Source: an uncultured Atribacterota bacterium
Lineage (GTDB): Bacteria; Atribacterota; Phoenicimicrobiia; Phoenicimicrobiales; Stramentimicrobiaceae
DNA length: 64,000 nt
Reading direction: 5' to 3'
Assembly (NCBI GenBank): GCA_964433635.1
Contig: CAYSSG010000005.1
Span: 11,295-75,294 of the forward strand
In this document: one piece after another, positions 6,187 through 49,959 of the stretch
Position numbering within the stretch: position 1 is the first letter of the stretch
Layout: every line of letters starts with the position of its first letter
Made by a program: the position numbers and the translations under genes
Notes under the pieces: model-generated
Databases searched by the model: none
Told to the model about the DNA's origin: nothing
What the model saw: only the letters and a program-made list of their open reading frames with translations

Positions 6187-7224
6187 TTGAATCAATTTAT
6201 TCGTTCTACTTCCGAAATAAAGCACTACCAGGTAGATACTGGGCGGAAACTTTTTTCTGCTAATCATGATGAGATAGAAAAAGGATTGACGACTGATGTT
6301 TATTTTATAAGAGCCCTGGAAATCCTGAAATATCTCCAACTGGATGGTACCAAGGTTACGGCAGAAATATTTGCCAGAAGAAAAGGAATTTTTGCCGGTG
6401 TTCAGGAAATATACAATCTGTTAAAGGATAAAAATATTAAGCTCTGGTCAATTCAAGAGGGAGATTCGTTTCAACCCAAAGAGACAGTCATGCGAATAGA
6501 GGGGCCTTATAACGAATTCGGAATTTTTGAGACAGTCATACTGGGAATACTGGCCAGCAGTTCTGCCTGGGCTACTGCAGCCAGAGCATGTCGTGATGTT
6601 GCTGGTGACAAAAAAATTATCTGTTTTGGATCCCGCCATATACACCCGGCAGTTGCCCCGGTCATGGAGAGATCCGCTATAATCGGTGGTATTGACGGAG
6701 CCAGTTGCATTCTGGGAGCGAAATTGATGGGCCAGGAGCCTCAGGGAACGATACCGCATACCGTGATCATTATTTCCGGAGACACGGTTAAGGCAGCAAA
6801 GGCATACCATCATTGCTGTCCCCCTGATGTTCCCAGGGTTATCCTGATTGATACATTTAAAGATGAGGCTGAGGAATCATTGAGGGTAGCTAATGCCTTA
6901 GGAAAAGATTTATTGGGAGTTCGGCTTGATACTCCCAGTGAAAGAGGAGGAGTATCCCCTGATCTGGTCAAAGAAGTGAGAATTCGGCTGGACCAGGCAG
7001 GATTTTCCCATGTTAAGATTTTCGTCTCCGGAGGTATAACGCCCGAACGGATTGAATTACTGAGTCAAGAAGCAGTAGATGCCTTTGGAGTGGGCAGTTT
7101 TATCAGCGATGCATCCCCCATTGATATGACCCTTGATATCAAGGAAATCGAAGGAAAACCGATTGCCAAAAGAGGGCGGATCCCCGGAAAGATTGAAAAT
7201 AAAAAGCTTGTGAAACTGATATAG
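6187..7224 (+). CDS. Nicotinate phosphoribosyltransferase family protein (COG1488-like)
   Basis: 345 aa. Weak but recognisable PRTase type II features (FGSRHIH, GGIDGAS, LIDTF, VRLDTPSERGG). TTG start with an AAAGGAAAC SD. Family-level call only. Confidence 0.55.
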   Translation: MNQFIRSTSEIKHYQVDTGRKLFSANHDEIEKGLTTDVYFIRALEILKYLQLDGTKVTAEIFARRKGIFAGVQEIYNLLKDKNIKLWSIQEGDSFQPKETVMRIEGPYNEFGIFETVILGILASSSAWATAARACRDVAGDKKIICFGSRHIHPAVAPVMERSAIIGGIDGASCILGAKLMGQEPQGTIPHTVIIISGDTVKAAKAYHHCCPPDVPRVILIDTFKDEAEESLRVANALGKDLLGVRLDTPSERGGVSPDLVKEVRIRLDQAGFSHVKIFVSGGITPERIELLSQEAVDAFGVGSFISDASPIDMTLDIKEIEGKPIAKRGRIPGKIENKKLVKLI

Positions 7225-7246
7225 CATTACGTATTATCTATATCAT
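7222..7246. repeat. Left inverted motif of intergenic cassette 1 (TAGCATTACGTATTAT...), overlapping the stop codon
   Basis: Member of a recurring motif family (see findings). Its partners are at 7811-7840, at 7616-7629 and at the other cassettes. Confidence 0.5.
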
Positions 7247-7498
7247 ATGCTGCATAATGTGAAATACTGGAAGTATAAATGTAAGATAATATAAAAAAAT
7301 CAATCTAAATTTTAAAAATTAAAATAAATCTGTTGAAAACAGAAAAATATCAGTAAACCAATCAGCTGGAAAATAAGTCATAGGAAAAGTGTAAATATAT
7401 TTAATCATTCATGTAGGGTAAATTTTTTTTATAGTGTCATTCGTTTTCGGTTTTTATATTTTGTTATTTTAGACCAGCATCTATACTTAAAAACGGTT

Positions 7499-7629
7499 TT
7501 GAAGTTTGGATTGGCAGATTCTTAATGATTTTTAACCAAAAACGAATAACTAAAAACTGAAAACAAATTTCAAGCTAACGACTGAATACCAACGACTAAC
7601 GACTTATTATTGGACTCAATACGTAATAC
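7499..7629. repeat. 131-bp perfect direct repeat, copy 1
   Basis: Identical to 7694-7824 as read by eye. Contains the AACGACT x3 sub-repeat and ends in the ATACGTAATAC motif. Confidence 0.85.
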
Positions 7630-7693
7630 ACACGACGCTATATCGTTTACCGTAAGGAGAGTTTGTGAATTGACTTTTGACACAGTATCTGAA

Positions 7694-7824
7694 TTGAAGT
7701 TTGGATTGGCAGATTCTTAATGATTTTTAACCAAAAACGAATAACTAAAAACTGAAAACAAATTTCAAGCTAACGACTGAATACCAACGACTAACGACTT
7801 ATTATTGGACTCAATACGTAATAC
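7694..7824. repeat. 131-bp perfect direct repeat, copy 2
   Basis: Identical to 7499-7629 at a 195-bp offset. Ends in the right inverted motif of the cassette, 26 nt before tRNA-Leu. Confidence 0.85.
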
Positions 7825-7850
7825 GGTATACGTTATACTGTCTTTAAATT

Positions 7851-8012: not shown

Positions 8013-8141
8013 AAAATACGGATTTTCAGTCACGAAATCCAGTCAACAGAAAATACGCTCTCCGGAGAACTTTCCAGGGAGATGAGAGGAAAGCGATTAA
8101 AAGGGTTTCAGGGATCATCTTTTCCTGATTCATTTATTGAG

Positions 8142-8492
8142 ATGCATGAAAGATCAATTGCCCGGAACTTATTGCATATCGTCTTAGATAAAGCAACTGT
8201 TAACGGTAGACAAAAAAAAGTAAAATTAATACGAATCATCATTGGCGAATTGACTATGATTCATGACGAGCTTCTGGTAGGTGCTTTTTATCAATTATCC
8301 CATTCTACAGTGGCAGGGGAAGCCAGAATTGAAATCCTGCATTCAACTTTACATGGAAAATGTCAAGACTGTCAAAAAAAATTCAAATTGAATAAAAGGG
8401 AATTTAAATGTCCTTTTTGTGGAGGTCAGTCTATTCAGATTATTAGTGGAGATGAATGTTTTATTCAGGATATTGAGCTGGTTGACCATTAA
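8142..8492 (+). CDS. hypA: Hydrogenase nickel-insertion zinc-finger protein HypA
   Basis: MHERSIARNLL N-terminus, plus CQDC...CPFCGG zinc-finger pair at the C-terminus. The ORF extends upstream to ATG 8082 (20 extra aa). Neither start has a good SD, so the start is uncertain. Confidence 0.75.
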   Translation: MHERSIARNLLHIVLDKATVNGRQKKVKLIRIIIGELTMIHDELLVGAFYQLSHSTVAGEARIEILHSTLHGKCQDCQKKFKLNKREFKCPFCGGQSIQIISGDECFIQDIELVDH

Positions 8493-31435: not shown

Positions 31436-31655
31436 TATCATCTCCCGGGAATATATTTTAGAATCCCTGTTTCTTATTGAATAGATTTACTTGACTTTTT
31501 TCAATAGATGATGTTCAAAACGATCCGGTATTGAAGTAAAAGATGCAGCAAGAAAGAAAAATCCCTTTCAGAATTGATTCTTTTCATTTGAAGATCATGG
31601 GTTATTTTACATCAATGTTATAATGATGTAATAAATTGCTTTGATAGCAGGTTAT

Positions 31656-32123
31656 ATGACTGAGAGAATTGTATTATCTATAGATCCAGGAAGAAAAAAA
31701 TGTGGACTTGCAGTTGTTGATACCCGGTTACAGTTGATAGCCGGGGAAATTGTGGGCACTGAGCAATTGGTTAATCAGGTAAAGCGTTATTTAGAACGTT
31801 ATTCGATTGATTGTATATTAATTGGCAGTGGAACCAATTGCGGGGAAATCATGAATTCAATCAGACAGAGGTTCCCTGATTCTATGTTGATTGAGGTTAC
31901 TGAAAAGGACTCCACTATGCTGGCCAGAAAACGATATTTTGATTATTATCCCCCGACTGGGTTTCTGAAAATACTACCTGTAAGTCTGCGTGTTCCGCCT
32001 CGTCCCTATGATGATTTTGCTGCCTTAGTGATTGCTGAGCGGTATTTTCAGATTCATAAAAAGGGTGACTGTAAAAATGAACCATTTATGATTAATCATA
32101 ATCAAAGTCAAAGTAATGATTAG
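31656..32123 (+). CDS. Hypothetical RNase-H-fold (RuvC/YqgF-like) protein
   Basis: N-terminal IVLSIDPGRKKCGLAVVD resembles the RuvC/YqgF catalytic strand. ORF opens at TTG 31641; ATG 31656 is preferred. Low-confidence family call. Confidence 0.4.
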   Translation: MTERIVLSIDPGRKKCGLAVVDTRLQLIAGEIVGTEQLVNQVKRYLERYSIDCILIGSGTNCGEIMNSIRQRFPDSMLIEVTEKDSTMLARKRYFDYYPPTGFLKILPVSLRVPPRPYDDFAALVIAERYFQIHKKGDCKNEPFMINHNQSQSND

Positions 32124-32802
32124 TTCTCAGGAGGAGAGTCTATTGACGAAAGTTAGAGTATTTTCCAATATTATGAAGAGTAACGAAGATATGGCAGCAA
32201 AAAACAGGCAAATGTTCAGTCAATGCCGTATACCGGTCATCAATATCATGAGCTCGCCTGGGTCAGGCAAGACCAGTTTGCTGGAAAAGACCATCGAAAG
32301 ACTTGTTCAGAAAATCAGAATGGCTGTTTTAGAGGGGGATCTACAGACAGATCGTGATGCCCAACGTATAAGTCAATTTCCTGTTCAGGTAGCCCAGATC
32401 AATACAGATGGTGCCTGCCATTTAGATGCCAATATGGTAAATAAGGCATTATCAGCCTTTGATTTAAGTCAGGTGGATCTTTTTTTCATAGAAAATGTGG
32501 GCAATTTAGTATGTCCGGCTGGATTTGATCTGGGAGAAAATTTTCGGGTTAATCTGGTAAGTATTCCTGAGGGGGATGACAAGGTCATTAAATACCCAGT
32601 GATTTTTAGAAAATGTGATGTTTTATTAATTAATAAGATAGACTTACTGCCCTATGTGCAATTTGACATAACGCGCTTAAGAAAAGAAGCCCTGGACATC
32701 AAATCCGATATGAACATTTTTGAGATTTCCTGCCTGACCGGTAAAGGCCTGGAGGATTGGTTTGATTGGATTGCAGCAATAACAGGGGGGAAAAGTATAT
32801 AG
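32116..32802 (+). CDS. hypB: Hydrogenase nickel-incorporation GTPase HypB
   Basis: P-loop SSPGSGKTSLLE, ENVGNLVCP switch region. ATG overlaps the previous stop. Alternative TTG 32144 follows an AGGAGG. Confidence 0.85.
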   Translation: MISSQEESLLTKVRVFSNIMKSNEDMAAKNRQMFSQCRIPVINIMSSPGSGKTSLLEKTIERLVQKIRMAVLEGDLQTDRDAQRISQFPVQVAQINTDGACHLDANMVNKALSAFDLSQVDLFFIENVGNLVCPAGFDLGENFRVNLVSIPEGDDKVIKYPVIFRKCDVLLINKIDLLPYVQFDITRLRKEALDIKSDMNIFEISCLTGKGLEDWFDWIAAITGGKSI

Positions 32803-33087
32803 TATAACGTATACCGTATCACGAGAAAATACATTGAGAATAGTCGAGAGTCATATAAGATTTACGGGAAATATGAATCAAATTACATAACCTACTAAAT
32901 TAATTTTCAATGATGAAATGGTTGCATCAATAGTGTATTGATTCAAATATTGAAGTATCAATAAAACAAACAGATCAGAAATTTTTTTAATTTACATTGA
33001 AGTTTTTCTTATTAAAACGGTATACGATATACGTAATACGGTATACAAAAAGGAGTTTTCCTTAAATTTGCACTTGGTGGTTGAACA

Positions 33088-35427
33088 ATGAAAATAAGAC
33101 AAAAAATCACGATACATGGAATCGTACAGGGAGTCGGATTCAGGCCTTTTGTTCATAAATTGGTTCAAGAGAATCGTCTAACCGGTTGGATTTGTAATTC
33201 TAACCGAGGTGTTGAAATGGAAATTGAAGGGGAAGAAAGAGCTATGCAGCATATGATTGAGGAGATGAAGAACCATCTTCCACCGTTAGCTTTGATTGAA
33301 GATATGCAGGTAGAAAAATTACCTCTTTTGGGGTTTTCAGGATTCTCCATACAGGAAAGCAATTCGAATCACCGGCATCCTGTTATTCTTATCCCTCCTG
33401 ATATTTCAATTTGTGATGATTGTTTAAAAGAACTCACTAATTCCTCTGATCGTCGCTATCAATATCCATTTATCAATTGCACTAATTGTGGGCCCCGATT
33501 CAGTATTATTCAAGACATGCCTTATGACCGGGATAAAACAACCATGAAAAATTTCTCCATGTGTCCGGAATGTTATGCAGAATATACGAATATAGAGAAT
33601 CGGCGTTACCATGCTCAGCCTGATGCCTGTCCGGAATGTGGTCCAGAGATAACACTATTTCAAGGTAACCAGAGAGTAATAATCAGCCAGCCCATAAAAG
33701 ATGCACAAAGAAGATTGAAAGAAGGTCAGATAGGTGCCATCAAAGGATTGGGAGGTTTCCATTTAGCCTGTGACGCAGGTAATATACTGGCCGTATCAAG
33801 ATTACGGGATATGAAGCAGAGAGATGAAAAACCTTTTGCAGTGATGGCTGAGAATGTCGATATCATAAGAAAATTCTGTTATCTATCCTCCTATGCCAGA
33901 AGATACCTGGTAAGCAAGGAAAGGCCAATTGTACTCCTAAAAAAGAAAAAGAATCATCTTCTTTCACCGGATATTGCTCCCGGAAATGGTTATATTGGAG
34001 TGATGTTACCCTATACGCCGCTTCATTTTTTACTGTTGCAAAATAGTGATCTGGTTGTAGTGATGACCAGTGCCAATTTCAGTGATGAGCCGATTATTAT
34101 TCAAAATGAAGAAGCCAGGGAGAAATTAGCTCATCGGGTTGATTTTATGCTTATGCATAACCGGTCAATCTATAATCGCTGCGACGATTCTGTCATGAAA
34201 GTTCATTCCCGTCAGTCAATATTCATAAGAAGATCCAGAGGTTATGCACCTTTCCCCATTGTCCTGTCTGCAAAGAATTGTCAGATTATGGCTGCGGGAC
34301 CTGAAGAGAAAAATACGGTCTGTTTTACCCGTGATCGTTATGCTTTTCCCAGCCAGCATCTGGGTGATTTGAAAAATCCTGAAAGTTATAAAGCTTATCA
34401 GGAAGCAATAAAGCGATTCATCAGGATATTTCAATTTCAACCCGAAATCATAGCCTGCGATCTTCATCCTGATTACCTCTCTACTGTTTATGCCCGGGAG
34501 ATGTCCCTGGAGAAGAATTTACCTTTATTGGAGATACAGCATCATCATGCTCATATTGCCAGTTGTATGGCCGAGAATCAATTGTCAGAGAAGGTTATCG
34601 GTGTTGCCTTTGACGGAACAGGATTGGGTGATGATGGTAAGATATGGGGTGGTGAATTCCTGGTGGCTGATCTGAATCAGTATGTCAGAGCAGGTCATTT
34701 AAAGTACCAGGCGATGCCGGGAGGAGAACAGGTTATACATCAGCCCTGGAGAATGGCGTTCAGCTACCTTTACTCTATCTTTGGACAGAATATATTTGAT
34801 TCTGATATTCCCCTGATTAAGAGGAGAGATTCCCGGGAAATAAGAATCATTGTTCAGATGATGAATCAGAAGATCAATACACCTCATACTTCCAGTTGCG
34901 GGCGATTATTTGATGCCGTTTCTTCTCTTATCGGTCTCAGAGATGAGGTTCATTTTGAAGGACAGGCTGCGATGGAATTGGAATCGATGTGTCAACCGAA
35001 ATATACACAGCATTATCCCTACCAGATTGAAGAAACACCTGCTGGTTTAAATGTAAATTTAGAACAGATGTTTCACGGGTTGATCCATGATATGGCAGCA
35101 GGTGAACCTATCAATAAGATTGTTACCCAGTTTCATAATACCATTACAGAATTTACCCTTTCGATGTGTCTTAAAATAAGGAAGCACTTTCATCTGCATA
35201 CCGCCGTTCTAAGTGGTGGTGTATTTCAAAATGTTTTTTTATTGGAACGGACTATCAGGAAACTGAAAGAGAAGAATTTTGAAGTCTTTATCCATCAGAA
35301 AATGCCACCCAATGATGCCTGTATTTCTCTTGGTCAGGCAGTGATTGCCAATGCAAGGACTCAGTCCAGTCCTTCTGTGGGAAGACGAAAGAATCATATT
35401 GATTATGTCAGTTCAACAATAGGATGA
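33088..35427 (+). CDS. hypF: Carbamoyltransferase HypF
   Basis: Acylphosphatase domain (VQGVGFRPFV). Two CxxC-x18-CxxC zinc fingers. YrdC domain and Kae1-like domain. 779 aa. Confidence 0.9.
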   Translation: MKIRQKITIHGIVQGVGFRPFVHKLVQENRLTGWICNSNRGVEMEIEGEERAMQHMIEEMKNHLPPLALIEDMQVEKLPLLGFSGFSIQESNSNHRHPVILIPPDISICDDCLKELTNSSDRRYQYPFINCTNCGPRFSIIQDMPYDRDKTTMKNFSMCPECYAEYTNIENRRYHAQPDACPECGPEITLFQGNQRVIISQPIKDAQRRLKEGQIGAIKGLGGFHLACDAGNILAVSRLRDMKQRDEKPFAVMAENVDIIRKFCYLSSYARRYLVSKERPIVLLKKKKNHLLSPDIAPGNGYIGVMLPYTPLHFLLLQNSDLVVVMTSANFSDEPIIIQNEEAREKLAHRVDFMLMHNRSIYNRCDDSVMKVHSRQSIFIRRSRGYAPFPIVLSAKNCQIMAAGPEEKNTVCFTRDRYAFPSQHLGDLKNPESYKAYQEAIKRFIRIFQFQPEIIACDLHPDYLSTVYAREMSLEKNLPLLEIQHHHAHIASCMAENQLSEKVIGVAFDGTGLGDDGKIWGGEFLVADLNQYVRAGHLKYQAMPGGEQVIHQPWRMAFSYLYSIFGQNIFDSDIPLIKRRDSREIRIIVQMMNQKINTPHTSSCGRLFDAVSSLIGLRDEVHFEGQAAMELESMCQPKYTQHYPYQIEETPAGLNVNLEQMFHGLIHDMAAGEPINKIVTQFHNTITEFTLSMCLKIRKHFHLHTAVLSGGVFQNVFLLERTIRKLKEKNFEVFIHQKMPPNDACISLGQAVIANARTQSSPSVGRRKNHIDYVSSTIG

Positions 35428-35445
35428 AAGTAGAGGTATATTTCC

Positions 35446-35661
35446 ATGTGTCTGGCTATTCCCGGTAAAGTGATCAGAATCATTGATTCCGAACAAGGGG
35501 AAGTACTCCTGGGAGGAATTAAGAAGATAGTAAGATTAGAACTCTTGTCCGAAGTGAATGAGGGTGATTATGTCCTTATTCATGCCGGTTATGCCATTAC
35601 CAGAATCAATGCCCGGGAGGCGGATGAGATTAATCGCGCCTGGAAGGAGGTTCAGTCTTGA
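35446..35661 (+). CDS. hypC: Hydrogenase assembly chaperone HypC
   Basis: MCLAIPGKV N-terminus. 71 aa. Confidence 0.85.
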   Translation: MCLAIPGKVIRIIDSEQGEVLLGGIKKIVRLELLSEVNEGDYVLIHAGYAITRINAREADEINRAWKEVQS

Positions 35662-36740
35662 AATATCGGGATGAATACCGGGATAAGGAGCTCTGTCAGT
35701 CTCTTGTGCAAAAGATAAAAGGACAGACGAAGGCAGATCTCAATATCATGGAGATCTGCGGTACCCACACTGTATCTATTTTTCGTTTCGGGCTGAAAGA
35801 GATGCTTCCAAAAAATATTCACCTGATTTCCGGTCCAGGTTGTCCGGTCTGCGTAACCCCTATTTCATCAATTGATTATATGATTGCCCTGTCCAGAGAG
35901 AAAAACATGATGATTGTTACATTCGGTGACATGATAAACGTACCGGGCAGTTCTTCCACCTTGAGTCAGGAAAAAGCACGGGGTGCCGATATAAAGATTA
36001 TTTACTCGCCCTTGCAGGCATTGGAAATTGCACGGGATTTTCCGCAAAAAAAGATTGTTTTGATTGGAATTGGTTTTGAAACTACAATACCGCTATTAGC
36101 AAGCGTCGTTCTGGAAGCAAAGAAGCAATCGTTGTCCAATTTTTTTCTTTTGAGTCTGGTCAAGGTGATGCCGCCGATTATGAAAGAGTTGCTGCAGGCC
36201 GGGGAGATAAAGATTGACGGATTTTTATGTCCCGGTCATGTAAGTGCCATTATCGGAACACAACCCTATCAATTTATCTCCCGGAAATTTCATATCCCAT
36301 GTGTCATTGCCGGTTTTGAGCCGGTGGATATTCTGCTTGCTGTCTATCACCTGATTCAGCAGAAATTACGGCAGAAACCTTTTGTAGAAAATCAATATAA
36401 GAGGGCAGTGAGGGAAGATGGGAATCCGTTAGCAATCAGGAAGATAAGAGAAGTTTTTATTCCCGTTGATGCGCTGTGGCGTGGAATAGGTCAAGTGACC
36501 AATAGCGGTCTGGACCTAAAGCCTGCCTTTTCTGCCATGAATGCATGTCATTTTAAGGTGAAAGTAGAGAAAACCAGGATAAATTCTGAATGCCGCTGTG
36601 GAGAGGTCATAAGAGGAATCATAACTCCCTTAGAGTGTCCTCTCTTTAGAAAAGTATGTTTACCGGAGAATCCGATTGGAGCATGTATGGTTTCCAGTGA
36701 AGGAGCCTGCGCAGCATATTATAAATATAATTTAGTATAG
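35658..36740 (+). CDS. hypD: Hydrogenase maturation factor HypD
   Basis: CGTHT, GPGCPVCVTP and CPVC Fe-S motifs. TTG start overlapping the hypC stop, with a GGAAGGAGG SD. Confidence 0.85.
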   Translation: MKYRDEYRDKELCQSLVQKIKGQTKADLNIMEICGTHTVSIFRFGLKEMLPKNIHLISGPGCPVCVTPISSIDYMIALSREKNMMIVTFGDMINVPGSSSTLSQEKARGADIKIIYSPLQALEIARDFPQKKIVLIGIGFETTIPLLASVVLEAKKQSLSNFFLLSLVKVMPPIMKELLQAGEIKIDGFLCPGHVSAIIGTQPYQFISRKFHIPCVIAGFEPVDILLAVYHLIQQKLRQKPFVENQYKRAVREDGNPLAIRKIREVFIPVDALWRGIGQVTNSGLDLKPAFSAMNACHFKVKVEKTRINSECRCGEVIRGIITPLECPLFRKVCLPENPIGACMVSSEGACAAYYKYNLV

Positions 36741-36905
36741 CGTATACTGTATAATGTATTATGTTCCAATACTTAGGGAGTATTGGGTGGGAAAAGTGTA
36801 TACACATGCATGTAGTTTTTATTCTGTAATATTTTTTATCAACTTCAGCTAGAGCTATATTTTCAAACGATATACGTAATACAGTATACAAAATGAGATA
36901 AACAT

Positions 36906-37916
36906 ATGAAAAACAATATAATAACTTTAGATCATGGCAGTGGTGGGAAATTAGCCAATCAGTTAGTTCGTTCCCTGTTTTTAAAATATTTTGGTAATCC
37001 AATTTTAAACCAGCTGCATGACGGCGCTATCTTACCACCTGCAAATAAGCGTATGGCCTTTTCTACAGATTCTTTTACCGTTAGTCCCCTGTTTTTTGCA
37101 GGAGGGAATATCGGAAATCTGGCAGTGCACGGAACAGTCAACGATTTAGCGATGTGTGGAGCTCGACCAAAATATCTGAGTGTTTCATTGATCATAGAAG
37201 AGGGGTTTTCCATCGAAAATCTGGAAAAGATTGTTTCCAGTATGGCCAAGTCCGCACAGAAAGCTGGTATTTTAGTGGTCACGGGGGATACCAAGGTTGT
37301 AAACCGCGGTGATGCTGATGGGATCTTTATCAATACTACCGGCATTGGTTATATTGCTGAAAACGTTCATATTGATGCAGACCAGGCTCAGGAGGGGGAT
37401 GCTGTTATCATAAACGGCCCTATTGGGAATCATGGCATCAGTATTTTAGCCTCCCGGGAAAACCTTCTGTTTGAACAGGTCATTCCCAGTGACACAGCAC
37501 CATTAGCTGACCTGGTTCAACAGATGCTCAGTATCACCAGAGAGATTCATGTTTTGAGAGACCCTACCCGTGGGGGATTGGCAACGGCTTTAAATGAAAT
37601 TGCCCAGTCTTCTCAGGTGGAAATTGAACTTGAAGAGGAAAAAATTCCCCTTGACAGCCAAGTTCAGGATGCCTGTGATATATTAGGCTATGACCCCCTT
37701 TATCTGGCTAATGAAGGTAAACTTGTTGCTTTTGTACCCCCAGGTTATGCCGGTGAAATGCTTAAAAAAATGAAAACATGTCCCTTTGGTGAACACGCTG
37801 ACATCATCGGAAAGGTTGTTTCCAGAGATCGGGCTGAAGTCATTCTTAAAACTGCTGTTGGTGGTAAAAGAGTGGTAGGTATGCTCAGCGGTCAGCAATT
37901 ACCCAGAATATGTTAA
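36906..37916 (+). CDS. hypE: Hydrogenase maturation factor HypE
   Basis: N-terminal LDHGSGG, AIR-synthase-like fold, and C-terminal PRIC. Confidence 0.85.
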   Translation: MKNNIITLDHGSGGKLANQLVRSLFLKYFGNPILNQLHDGAILPPANKRMAFSTDSFTVSPLFFAGGNIGNLAVHGTVNDLAMCGARPKYLSVSLIIEEGFSIENLEKIVSSMAKSAQKAGILVVTGDTKVVNRGDADGIFINTTGIGYIAENVHIDADQAQEGDAVIINGPIGNHGISILASRENLLFEQVIPSDTAPLADLVQQMLSITREIHVLRDPTRGGLATALNEIAQSSQVEIELEEEKIPLDSQVQDACDILGYDPLYLANEGKLVAFVPPGYAGEMLKKMKTCPFGEHADIIGKVVSRDRAEVILKTAVGGKRVVGMLSGQQLPRIC

Positions 37917-41256: not shown

Positions 41257-41462
41257 TAGAAAATAATGTTCAACCGGTCTCTCATTCCCCTGCTTTTTGG
41301 TCATAAGGTAATAGTCTCAGTATAAATACATTTCTCTGATTTAAGAATGCAGATACGAATATGACCAGGAATGAGATTTCAACCTGGAGAAGCAGAATTG
41401 ATTCATGACAGTTGATCATGATGATTGATCAGGCAAGAGATAAGAGATAAGGAGCTTGGAAA

Positions 41463-48450: not shown

Positions 48451-49299
48451 ATGATGAACAGATATCAATTCCGGCCTAAAAAGAGATTAGGACAAAACTT
48501 TCTCATCGACAAAAATATTGCCTCAATCATTGTAAAAGCCCTGCGCTTGAATAAAGAGGATTCCATATTTGAAATTGGTACCGGTATGGGATCCCTGACT
48601 TTATCATTAACGCCTGGTGTAAAGCATATTTTTTCTGTTGAAAAGGACACTCGTCTGAAACCAATTTTGGATCATATTGTGTCTGATTATCAGAATGAGA
48701 TTACAATTATGTATCAGGATATTCTGGATTTCGATTTAGTCGACTTTCTGAACAGGAAAAAACAGGAAGGTTATCAAGTAAGAAAATTAGCCGGGAACTT
48801 ACCTTACTCCATTTCACTACCTTTACTGAAAAAACTGATGGAAATGCACGATTATTTGGATACAGCAGTGATCATGGTTCAAAGGGAGGTTGCCGAACGC
48901 ATGATGGCTGTATCCGGTGATAAGAATTATGGTGTCCTTTCTCTTGTGTCCAGCTATTATGCAGATATCAAAAAGATTCACCTGGTAAAACCGGAAGCAT
49001 TCTTTCCAAGACCTGCCGTAGACTCAATGATTGTTAGAATTGAATTTTTAACCAGACCAAGGGTCATTATTGAAGACGAAGACCTCTTTTTTGACCTGAT
49101 TCACGCCATTTTTCAACACCGGAGAAAAAGTGTAAAGAATGCTTTGCAATTGTATTTTGGTGATAGGCTTGATCAGAGTAAACTGGACAATTCACTTCTC
49201 AGAATCGGATTACCATTGAGCCGGCGAGGAGAAAGCTTTAGTTTGGAAGAATTTTCAAGGTTAACCAGCGAAATCAAGAAAATCATAAAATGCAGTTAA
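48451..49299 (+). CDS. rsmA: 16S rRNA (adenine1518/1519-N6)-dimethyltransferase RsmA/KsgA
   Basis: RLGQNFLIDKNI and SAM motif EIGTGMGSLT. ORF opens at 48364; ATG 48451 (MMNRYQFRPKKRLGQNFL) fits the family N-terminus. Confidence 0.85.
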   Translation: MMNRYQFRPKKRLGQNFLIDKNIASIIVKALRLNKEDSIFEIGTGMGSLTLSLTPGVKHIFSVEKDTRLKPILDHIVSDYQNEITIMYQDILDFDLVDFLNRKKQEGYQVRKLAGNLPYSISLPLLKKLMEMHDYLDTAVIMVQREVAERMMAVSGDKNYGVLSLVSSYYADIKKIHLVKPEAFFPRPAVDSMIVRIEFLTRPRVIIEDEDLFFDLIHAIFQHRRKSVKNALQLYFGDRLDQSKLDNSLLRIGLPLSRRGESFSLEEFSRLTSEIKKIIKCS

Positions 49300-49586
49300 T
49301 AGTATTACGTATACCGTATAACGTAGAGACTGAAGAATAATTGAAAATAGTAGAACTTAAGCCTCGACTTACGATTATAGAGAAAATTAATATTCAATAT
49401 AACACTTAACACAGTGAATATAAAGTAAAGTCAATAATCCAGGATTCAATTAGACACTTAAGAAATTGTTTTATCGGATAAAACCAATTCCATGCGACAA
49501 TATAAAGTTTGATGGCTTATGATTATAAGATTTAGCTTTCAATAATACTTAGAAACGTTATACGCAATACAATACGGTATACTATT

Positions 49587-49616
49587 TTAAATCTTTTGAC
49601 AAACAAGCATTATACA
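49587..49616 (+). promoter_or_regulatory. SigmaA-type promoter (-35 TTGACA, extended -10 TGaTAAAAT) upstream of spoVG leader
   Basis: TTGACA at 49587-49592, then TGATAAAAT at 49608-49616. Sits 4 nt after the right inverted motif of cassette 4. Confidence 0.5.
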
Positions 49617-49959
49617 TGATAAAATTTGACAAATTCCAAAATAACCAAGGTAATCAATATCACAGACAGTCTTATGAAGGCACAGAAAAATTTGAATGCT
49701 AAGAAAAAGCTTTAAACTGAATGATGGAGGTACTCCTCAACACAGCAGGTATTCTCTGCTGTGTTTCTTTATCTTTAATACTAATCTGTGTTATAACAGG
49801 AGGTACATGACGATATGTAACAACGGAAAAAAGGAAAAGTATTTTATGGGAATCAAAATGATAGAGGTTTTGTGAAAAAGAACAAAAGAAGATGTTGTTA
49901 AATGTCTGGATACTGTGTTTACAAGAAAACTAAAAAACAAATAAGGCGGTGTACACAAA

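Follow-up and report, generated by a model that had tools for sequence, protein, structure and literature searches.

The stretch of DNA analysed here (64,000 nt from an uncultured Atribacterota bacterium, referred to below as the window) contains a hydrogenase-maturation (hyp) operon in which the gaps between hypB and hypF and between hypD and hypE are each bounded by an inverted motif. An earlier reading, made from the letters alone (the sequence-only reading), had described these gaps as motif-bounded cassettes. Its coordinates and identities for the five genes were correct, Pfam confirming each, and the inverted motif was confirmed at both gaps (285 and 165 nt, respectively). The genes are:

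hypB, 32116-32802, + strand: Pfam CobW/HypB/UreG (E = 9.6e-21)
hypF, 33088-35427, + strand: identified by Pfam
hypC, 35446-35661, + strand: identified by Pfam
hypD, 35658-36740, + strand: identified by Pfam; TAG stop at 36738-36740
hypE, 36906-37916, + strand: Pfam AIRS and AIRS_C; homologs found

The hypB-hypF spacer (32803-33087) and the hypD-hypE spacer (36741-36905) have GC contents of 0.27 and 0.29, against 0.40 for the whole window. The motif that bounds them is a tandem array of degenerate heptamers, GTATNNC, with three to four units in each left arm. Their parts are:

Left arm of the hypB-hypF spacer, 32795-32823, + strand: GTATATA, GTATAAC, GTATACC and GTATCAC, followed by G
Core of the hypB-hypF spacer, 32824-33016, + strand: AT-rich
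Right arm of the hypB-hypF spacer, 33017-33046, + strand: ACGGTATACGATATACGTAATACGGTATAC, inverse-complementary to the heptamer family
Left arm of the hypD-hypE spacer, 36735-36765, + strand: GTATAGC, GTATACT, GTATAAT and GTATTAT, followed by GTT
Core of the hypD-hypE spacer, 36766-36866, + strand: holds a local hairpin, CCAAUACU...AGUAUUGG
Right arm of the hypD-hypE spacer, 36867-36889, + strand: ACGATATACGTAATACAGTATAC

The left arms begin inside the genes they follow: the final two codons of hypB and its TAG stop (32800-32802) fall within the first heptamers of its arm, and the TAG stop of hypD sits within the first heptamer of the other. All four left arms of the window begin with (A/T)TAG at or beside a stop codon (ATAGTAT, TTAGTAT or ATAGCAT). 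The right arms stop 41 nt 5′ of the hypF ATG, for which a Shine-Dalgarno sequence (GGTGG) is present at 33076-33080, and 16 nt 5′ of the hypE ATG. When the hypD-hypE right arm plus the next 4 nt was compared with the hypB-hypF right arm, 26 of 27 positions were identical; the hypB left arm and the inverse of the right arm of an element beside a tRNA-Leu gene (described in the last section) agree at 22 of 23. The pattern GTATNNNGTATNNNGTAT, that is (GTATNNN)x2+GTAT, had 10 matches in the window against 0.00 in 100 shuffles, and GTATACYGTATYACG, with at most two mismatches, had 7 against 0.22 expected. Tandem Repeats Finder reported period 7 at 32802-32823, 33017-33046, 36742-36764, 49302-49325 and 7813-7838, and a period-7 detector run over the 64 kb found arrays in five gaps only, all of them intergenic.

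Other kinds of signal were sparse. Rfam, run over the whole window at the gathering threshold and over three spacer regions at E ≤ 1, returned tRNAs only, and no small open reading frame (ORF) of more than 32 aa lies within the hypB-hypF spacer. The core of that spacer has a single weak promoter-like site (32834-32861, 9 of 12 positions); such sites are not enriched between 32000 and 38100 (21 against 16.9 expected). No + strand terminator was predicted in the hyp spacers, and the sequences 5′ of the right arms showed no motif in common. In short-read (Logan) assemblies made independently from this strain (99.9-100% identity), contigs break at the hypB-hypF right arm, one starting at 33031 (L201) and another at 33048 (L202), as expected for a multi-copy repeat. 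The hypD-hypE spacer was identical in three independent short-read assemblies of the strain, so that no copy-number variation was seen there.

Gaps and heptamer families in related genomes

The hyp loci of relatives (∼105 kb, a sample biased to hyp) were compared with the window, which covers 64 kb of its own genome. The closest relatives by HypD are all uncultured Atribacterota (L001, 76% identity; L002, 69-70%; L003 and L010, 67%; others, ∼59%). The gene order fdhD-X-hypB-hypF-hypC-hypD-hypE-AMMECR1 is kept across the Atribacterota loci. The overlap between hypC and hypD noted in the sequence-only reading holds; it is 4 nt long in every Atribacterota locus examined, and is never invaded by repeats. 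The remaining junctions vary. The hypF-hypC gap is 18 nt in the window and reaches 441 nt in other Atribacterota. The hypB-hypF gap measures 285-338 nt in the window, L001, L002 and L010, while in four more distant Atribacterota (L011, L012, L013 and L016) the two genes overlap by 11 nt and no motif is present. The synteny check that had been proposed for this junction therefore fits a gain, and the spacer was probably acquired in the clade of the window (the tree being unrooted). The hypD-hypE junction gave a different answer: its gap, 165 nt in the window, is 198-745 nt in every other Atribacterota locus with both genes, compared with less than ∼50 nt in 9 of 12 loci from other phyla. Judged from these loci, the gap is old and phylum-wide, and the proposal that the spacer is a recent insertion does not stand. 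Its content is another matter. Species whose hypD genes are 85-95% identical in nucleotide sequence differ widely in what the gap holds (TAGTCGT arrays, TAGTATA arrays, or a GTAG-tagged hairpin with a transposase-like gene), indicating that hypD-hypE gaps turn over fast and that other repeats settle in them. At one extreme a gap is a compact hairpin of ∼100 nt; at the other, its arms are parted by 100-700 nt of unrelated AT-rich DNA.

In relatives the same inverted bracket occurs at the same hyp junctions and at others, built from different heptamer families, with both arms of a pair drawn from the same family:

L001: (A/C)GTATTG at hypB-hypF; AGTTTTT at hypD-hypE
L002: AGTTTTT at hypB-hypF; GTATNNC, as in the window, at hypD-hypE
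L010: AGTCGTT and AGTATTT at hypB-hypF
More distant lineages: TAGTCGT/TAGTGAA, TAGTATA, and the octamers TGGTTANN and CCAATTNN

The spacers of close relatives are equally long and different in sequence, which comes near to the pattern that the sequence-only reading had set against its own insertion hypothesis; they are not motif-free, however, and carry an analogous but different heptamer motif. Several families coexist within single spacers of L010 and L007. The octamer arrays, near-palindromic around AATT, form the same inverted bracket in the hypE-AMMECR1 and hypF-hypC gaps of L006, L007, L014 and L017.

Placement and periodicity are shared by these families. In 14 of 15 hyp-cluster gaps the left array starts no more than 7 nt to either side of the stop codon (-7 to +7); most right arrays end 16-41 nt 5′ of the start codon, shortly before the Shine-Dalgarno sequence. 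The preference for sites near stop codons suggested by the sequence-only reading is borne out to this extent, but the spacers so placed are not copies of a cassette. On the arm following the stop, (A/C)GT every 7 nt is common to all period-7 families. A count over the sense strand of 24 period-7 left arms gave 102 occurrences of GT and 21 of AC; the distance from one GT to the next was exactly 7 in 57 of 78 cases, and the base preceding GT was A 58 times and C 32 times. The density of period-7 arrays was 0.76 per kb for Atribacterota loci and 0.10 per kb for those of other phyla (7-fold enrichment), and that of period-8 arrays 0.44 and 0.02 per kb (20-fold). Of the 67 spacers that reach 90 nt or more, 19 had inverted terminal arms, compared with 5 in a direct-repeat control. 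TAG is the stop codon at 18 of 32 sites adjoining arrays, compared with 11 of 60 among the genes of the window, and 11 of 32 left arms provide extra stops in all three frames (4.3 expected from shuffled arms). The end of HypD differs between lineages: the ancestral protein ends ...YYKYN* at a TAG, while the window, L002 and L003 read two further codons into the array (L-V in the window), and HypD extends further still in L010 (into an array) and in L011 (12 extra residues, through a hairpin of the repetitive extragenic palindromic, or REP, type).

A survey of (GTATNNC)x3+GTAT in metagenome contigs (L081-L200) and IMG/VR contigs (L207-L246) returned more than 120 metagenome contigs (GC 0.29-0.71), in which the array often lies beside other heptamer arrays, and 40 viral contigs; in L105, L185 and L186 it forms a compact perfect hairpin. 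CGTATTG-type arrays are therefore probably not confined to Atribacterota. In low-GC metagenome contigs, 14 of 15 arrays have the G/T-rich arm after a stop codon and the A/C-rich arm before a start codon. This rule is strand-symmetric for inverted pairs and so does not separate RNA from DNA models. For single GTATNNC arrays in the 120 metagenome contigs, all GC contents pooled, strand-specific placement was not significant in what was a crude count with unreliable ORF calls.

Some hypD-hypE gaps hold a further kind of repeat. A GTAG-tagged hairpin, GGGCAGACCTTGTGTCTGCCC, occurs there together with a gene for an HUH/Y1 transposase resembling the REP-associated tyrosine transposases (RAYTs) in L008 (2777-3095), L010 (7523-8031), L011 (4696-5203) and L013 (7080-7579). 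The hairpin abuts the TAG stop of hypD in L008, L011 and L013, and the RAYT ORF itself contains an in-frame copy. In all four loci, the hairpin that the RAYT-like gene adjoins is unlike the arms of the window. A tblastn search found no RAYT gene in the 64-kb window, and no GTAG hairpin is present there; a search of the window cores for decayed RAYT remnants (tblastn, E ≤ 50) returned noise only.

Likeness to known repeats

The short tandemly repeated repetitive (STRR) sequences of cyanobacteria are heptanucleotide arrays. TAACTGA repeats in Beggiatoaceae, Cyanobacteria and Bacteroidetes are intergenic, lie near start codons, are sometimes inverted just past a stop, and break assemblies; the 'Maribeggiatoa' genome has 169 direct sets and one inverted set (PMC4679880). 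In the account of Mrazek (2007) given in that paper, heptamers are the commonest unit among long simple-sequence repeats. The co-transcribed extended hyp operon of Nostoc PCC 7120 has csR1 heptamers in its gaps (PMC2408588, Table 3). The present arrays resemble these in their 7-nt unit, repeated head to tail in 2-6 degenerate copies (at least three in the window), in their dispersal over intergenic DNA (five spacers of the 64-kb window) by start codons or just past stops, in the mixture of families within a gap, in the 7-nt steps by which relatives differ, in the assembly breaks within arrays, and, as in Nostoc, in their presence within a hyp operon. On the G/T-rich strand they share an AGT core with TAACTGA (read as TCAGTTA) and with the Nostoc units CAGTTGT and TAGTTGT. 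They differ in that the units (GTATNNC, AACGACT, AAAAACT and others) are neither STRR1-3 nor TAACTGA, only the (A/C)GT core being common, in that a gap is enclosed over its full length, stop codon to ribosome-binding site, by an inverted pair, and in the phylum concerned, Atribacterota, for which a literature search gave no description of heptamer arrays.

REP sequences of the GTAG class are found 3′ of genes, where they provide TAG stops; they occur as inverted dimers and are tied to RAYT genes (PMC3733652, PMC2817692, PMC3116915). The arms of the window are likewise extragenic modules of ∼25-35 nt, mostly just 3′ of coding regions and plausibly transcribed, whose terminus is often a TAG stop, which form inverted dimers as do REPs and bacterial interspersed mosaic elements (BIMEs), and which are near-identical between loci of one genome. 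Unlike a REP, which folds into its own stem-loop of 20-40 bp, each arm is a direct array that pairs with its partner across 130-580 nt, only its GTATAC core being self-complementary; the GTAG/CGTC tag is absent from the window arms, which have only (A/T)TAGT in its place, and the distance between arms is long and variable. A third group comprises miniature inverted-repeat transposable elements (MITEs) that fold in operon transcripts and are cut by RNase III or alter mRNA stability, such as Correia/NEMIS in Neisseria, ERIC in Yersinia and Nezha in cyanobacteria (reviewed in PMC3733652). These share with the present elements terminal inverted repeats, a position between co-directional operon genes, and stem-loop folding (here predicted); the present elements depart from them in having no conserved core, target-site duplication or fixed length, and many arm families at orthologous sites. 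On sequence grounds, the Atribacterota elements combine heptamer units with an inverted pairing like that of REPs and BIMEs, and lack defining features of REPs (a self-palindromic unit, the GTAG tag) and of MITEs (a conserved core, a target-site duplication).

Origin and possible role of the spacers

If the spacers were discrete MITE-like cassettes, they would be non-autonomous transposons with terminal inverted repeats, inserted preferentially near stop codons. Such repeats exist at the window elements, the hypB-hypF gap is missing from more distant relatives, the arms exist in several copies and interrupt short-read contigs, and the best-conserved arm bases are the outermost ones. However, when the four window spacers and seven orthologous ones were compared all against all by blastn, only the arrays aligned, the cores sharing nothing; arm modules are ∼96% identical between loci of one genome and yet their cores are unrelated in all copies. 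No consistent direct repeat that might represent a target-site duplication was visible in the flanks read, in the window or in relatives. The four window elements measure 155, 252, 284 and 619 nt from arm to arm, where a MITE would have a conserved interior and length; orthologous gaps contain different arm families, and gap lengths run continuously from 18 to 745 nt. The description of the spacers as motif-bounded cassettes was therefore abandoned; a MITE origin is largely refuted within the window itself and is considered very unlikely. Integron-type gene cassettes parted by attC-like imperfect inverted repeats would account for co-directional genes each followed, just past its stop, by an imperfect inverted repeat. 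The fdhD-X-hypB-F-C-D-E-AMMECR1 order is nevertheless conserved across the phylum, and the arms are tandem heptamers in which no RYYYAAC/GTTRRRY core site was seen when they were read by eye; on gene order and arm sequence, the chance that this explanation is right is negligible. Nor is it at all probable that the arms are operators of a hydrogenase-maturation regulator, with an internal promoter in each AT-rich core and hypB, hypFCD and hypE separately regulated. The palindromic GTATAC, the AT-richness of the cores and the weak promoter-like site in one of them, mentioned above, would suit this, but the same arms flank the nadC-like/tRNA-Leu and ksgA/spoVG gaps, which are unrelated to hydrogenase, the heptamers of relatives at the same junctions are unrelated and non-palindromic, and neither an excess of promoter-like sites nor a shared motif 5′ of the right arms was found. 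The arms at unrelated genes and the conserved synteny led to rejection of the regulon and integron explanations.

Two explanations that assign a function to the arrays deserve more weight. In one, which corresponds to the transcript segmentation suggested by the sequence-only reading, the arms are a selected RNA element: a duplex of at least 20 bp in the mRNA would be cut by RNase III, or would join the stop codon to the ribosome-binding site for re-initiation. Complementary flanks form duplexes of this length at the intercistronic RNase III sites of T7 early mRNA and in the stems flanking 16S and 23S rRNA, and those of the hyp spacers could in the same way delimit a segment of polycistronic RNA (by prediction). 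The arms pair in both minimum-free-energy and centroid folds, with predicted arm-arm duplex energies of -25.6, -21.3 and -24.0 kcal/mol. In L007, the whole hypD-hypE gap is predicted to form one hairpin of nested arrays (-72.1 kcal/mol, z = -9.3), the base of which holds the AAC-UAG end of hypD; in L006, a hypF-hypC hairpin (-33.5 kcal/mol, z = -4.7, predicted) has a stem that begins at the stop codon and ends 22 nt short of the AUG. The whole-gap hairpins of relatives hold the stop codon in their base and end 20-22 nt before the next AUG. The absence of a predicted intrinsic terminator or strong internal promoter from the hyp spacers would also fit, and the geometry with the stop at one arm and the ribosome-binding site after the other recurs at ∼15 junctions. 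The segment enclosed by the arms, unlike that in the T7 and rRNA systems, is non-conserved and AT-rich, and the arms show no sign of conservation specific to RNA. Over 27 arm pairs with known transcription direction, the arms were ∼81% complementary, and the mismatches comprised 36 G.U, 45 A.C and 87 transversions (half of all mismatches); the sense-strand excess of G.U expected of a selected RNA helix is thus absent. Cognate arms pair no better than non-cognate ones, the hypD left arm reaching -39.8 kcal/mol with the tRNA-Leu right arm compared with -21.3 kcal/mol with its own partner, and the use of one family in both hyp spacers would permit mispairing across 3.9 kb. RNA-specific selection was rejected on the mismatch count and the cognate/non-cognate duplex matrix, both negative. 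The element beside ksgA, moreover, lies upstream of a promoter-like site and not beside a ribosome-binding site. These mismatches, the non-cognate pairing and the position of the ksgA element favour maintenance at the DNA level, as far as sequence comparison can tell. A role in RNA keeps some standing because the arrays can pair in several registers, but a selected RNA element is on balance unlikely. In the other explanation, rather improbable, the arrays are a periodic platform for an oligomeric or cooperative protein that reads (A/C)GT, or (A/C)GU, every 7 nt, and two platforms would meet through the inversion of the arrays. Parallels are HutP, which recognises UAG-N4 repeats, and the cold-shock proteins, to which heptanucleotides like GTCTTTT bind. 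On RNA the reader might be ribosomal protein S1, a cold-shock protein or a ring like that of HutP/TRAP; on DNA it might be a nucleoid protein or gyrase, as for BIMEs. The GT invariant at a 7-nt period across otherwise unrelated families would suit such a reader, as would the ∼96% identity of arm modules between loci and the retention of one family at the hypD end over deep divergence; binding by S1, Csp or CsrA was proposed by MacGregor for TAACTGA arrays (PMC4679880). Against it stand the many families within one spacer (L010, L007), the occurrence of octamer arrays, and the lack of significant strand placement for single arrays in the crude survey.

The explanation preferred here, with modest confidence, is that the hyp spacers are local cases of lineage-wide palindromic extragenic repeats maintained at the DNA level, the arms of which would be able to close the spacer in the transcript. 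Their building block is a short tandem run of 3-6 degenerate heptamers in which (A/C)GT keeps its place, and the outer edges of a gap hold two such runs, of one family and inverted to each other; the first adjoins, and often supplies, a TAG stop, and the second ends 16-41 nt before the next start, just 5′ of the ribosome-binding site. Such elements may arise and be kept up at the DNA level by slippage in 7-nt steps, by copying or conversion of arm modules of ∼25 nt, and by insertions into the hairpin loop, persisting only where a coding sequence or tight overlap stays unbroken. In polycistronic RNA the arms might then pair (-21 to -26 kcal/mol, predicted) into a stem-loop with the stop codon at its base, beside the ribosome-binding site, so that the spacer would be looped out and the operon would remain one unit. 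Any effects on expression would probably be REP-like, on mRNA stability, through structure at the termination site, or by RNase III cutting. The part played by the spacers in the transcript, whether looping-out or processing, is the more conjectural half of this proposal.

Several observations weigh against this account, or limit its reach. The arms of the window spacers pair in minimum-free-energy and centroid folds, but the predicted z-scores are modest (-1.6 to -1.8), and the pairing within a transcript on which the looping-out step would depend is a prediction. The mismatch test is noisy, since more than one register of pairing is open to the arrays. At the hypD end, L002 and L003 keep the GTATNNC family of the window although their HypD proteins are only 67-70% identical to that of the window; together with the ∼96% identical arm modules, this could reflect selection by a trans-acting reader. 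Either arm modules are copied continually or something reads them, and a purely neutral or selfish DNA model fits this poorly. With neither a RAYT gene nor a GTAG hairpin in the window, the link to an HUH transposase comes from relatives only, and the genome-wide census is an extrapolation from the 64 kb plus the ∼105 kb of hyp-biased loci.

Should the repeats maintained in this manner be mere repeat DNA, the arrays would explain the fragmentation of Atribacterota assemblies at gene junctions, and the drift of C-termini and stop codons, HypD gaining 2-14 residues by reading into arrays or REP hairpins. Nothing in this is special to hydrogenase maturation; it shows how an uncultivated phylum organises, and tolerates, large structured operon gaps. 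A bolder and rather improbable reading is that inverted (A/C)GT-N4 arrays are a functional, phylum-wide device as opposed to tolerated repeat DNA, either a platform for a dedicated oligomeric protein or a stop-to-ribosome-binding-site hairpin that loops the spacer out for re-initiation. With such a device, operons could gather hundreds of spacer bases and yet keep their coupling. A hairpin with this role would be a general means of tuning or preserving expression within operons, and would bear on the function of the cyanobacterial STRR and TAACTGA heptamers, a question standing since 1990. In a related reading, the arm modules of ∼25 nt would be new, very small mobile units copied between loci by enzymes of the HUH/RAYT type; if true, the AGT core common to cyanobacterial and Beggiatoaceae heptamers would point to one cross-phylum mechanism. 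The rule of (A/C)GT every 7 nt and the stop-to-ribosome-binding-site geometry offer concrete, testable motif leads.

Neighbouring genes and other arrays in the window

The remaining genes of interest and the two elements outside the hyp operon are:

hypA, 8082-8492, + strand: directly 5′ of an Mrp/Mbh-type [NiFe] hydrogenase cluster that starts at 8678
Gene X, 31641-32123, between fdhD and hypB: sub-threshold YqgF/RuvX-like match (E = 2e-5)
nadC-like/tRNA-Leu element, 7222-7840, + strand: degenerate left arm (7222-7244) starting with a TAG stop; consensus right arm (7812-7840)
ksgA element, 49300-49583, + strand: directly 3′ of the ksgA TAA (49297-49299); left arm 49300-49325, right arm 49555-49583

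The position of hypA immediately upstream of the mbh cluster was thus as the sequence-only reading had placed it. That reading had also described fdhD, X and hypB as translationally coupled; X and hypB do overlap, by 8 nt, but fdhD and X are 205 nt apart (31436-31640), with no overlap. This gap is AT-rich and has no heptamer arrays, so that not every enlarged gap in the clade of the window has a bracket; in L001 and L002 it measures 183-194 nt, and in distant relatives 30 nt. Gene X keeps its place between fdhD and hypB across Atribacterota.

A strong promoter-like site lies 3′ of the ksgA element (49596-49625; sigma-70-like, TTGACA-18-TAAAAT, 11 of 12 positions with TG), which puts the bracket in the 3′ region of the upstream gene and not beside a ribosome-binding site. 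A terminator-like hairpin (49739-49765) follows this promoter; the pair, within the region 49596-49810, suggests that spoVG is preceded by a transcript or leader ∼130-140 nt long. The same region has a 29-aa hydrophobic ORF (49721-49810) and gave no Rfam match. Between the mreB-like and mreC-like genes, which are 206 nt apart, a small tandem array of AAGAGAT was found (41430-41452), for which no inverted partner was detected. The nadC-like/tRNA-Leu gap contains a tandemly duplicated 144-nt unit (7499-7642 and 7694-7837; 96% identity, 195-nt period) made of three heptamer families in series, AAAAACT-type, AACGACT-type and CAATACG-type. The AAAAACT-type followed by the AACGACT-type occurs in the same order 3′ of hypD in L010 (74 nt, 74% identity).

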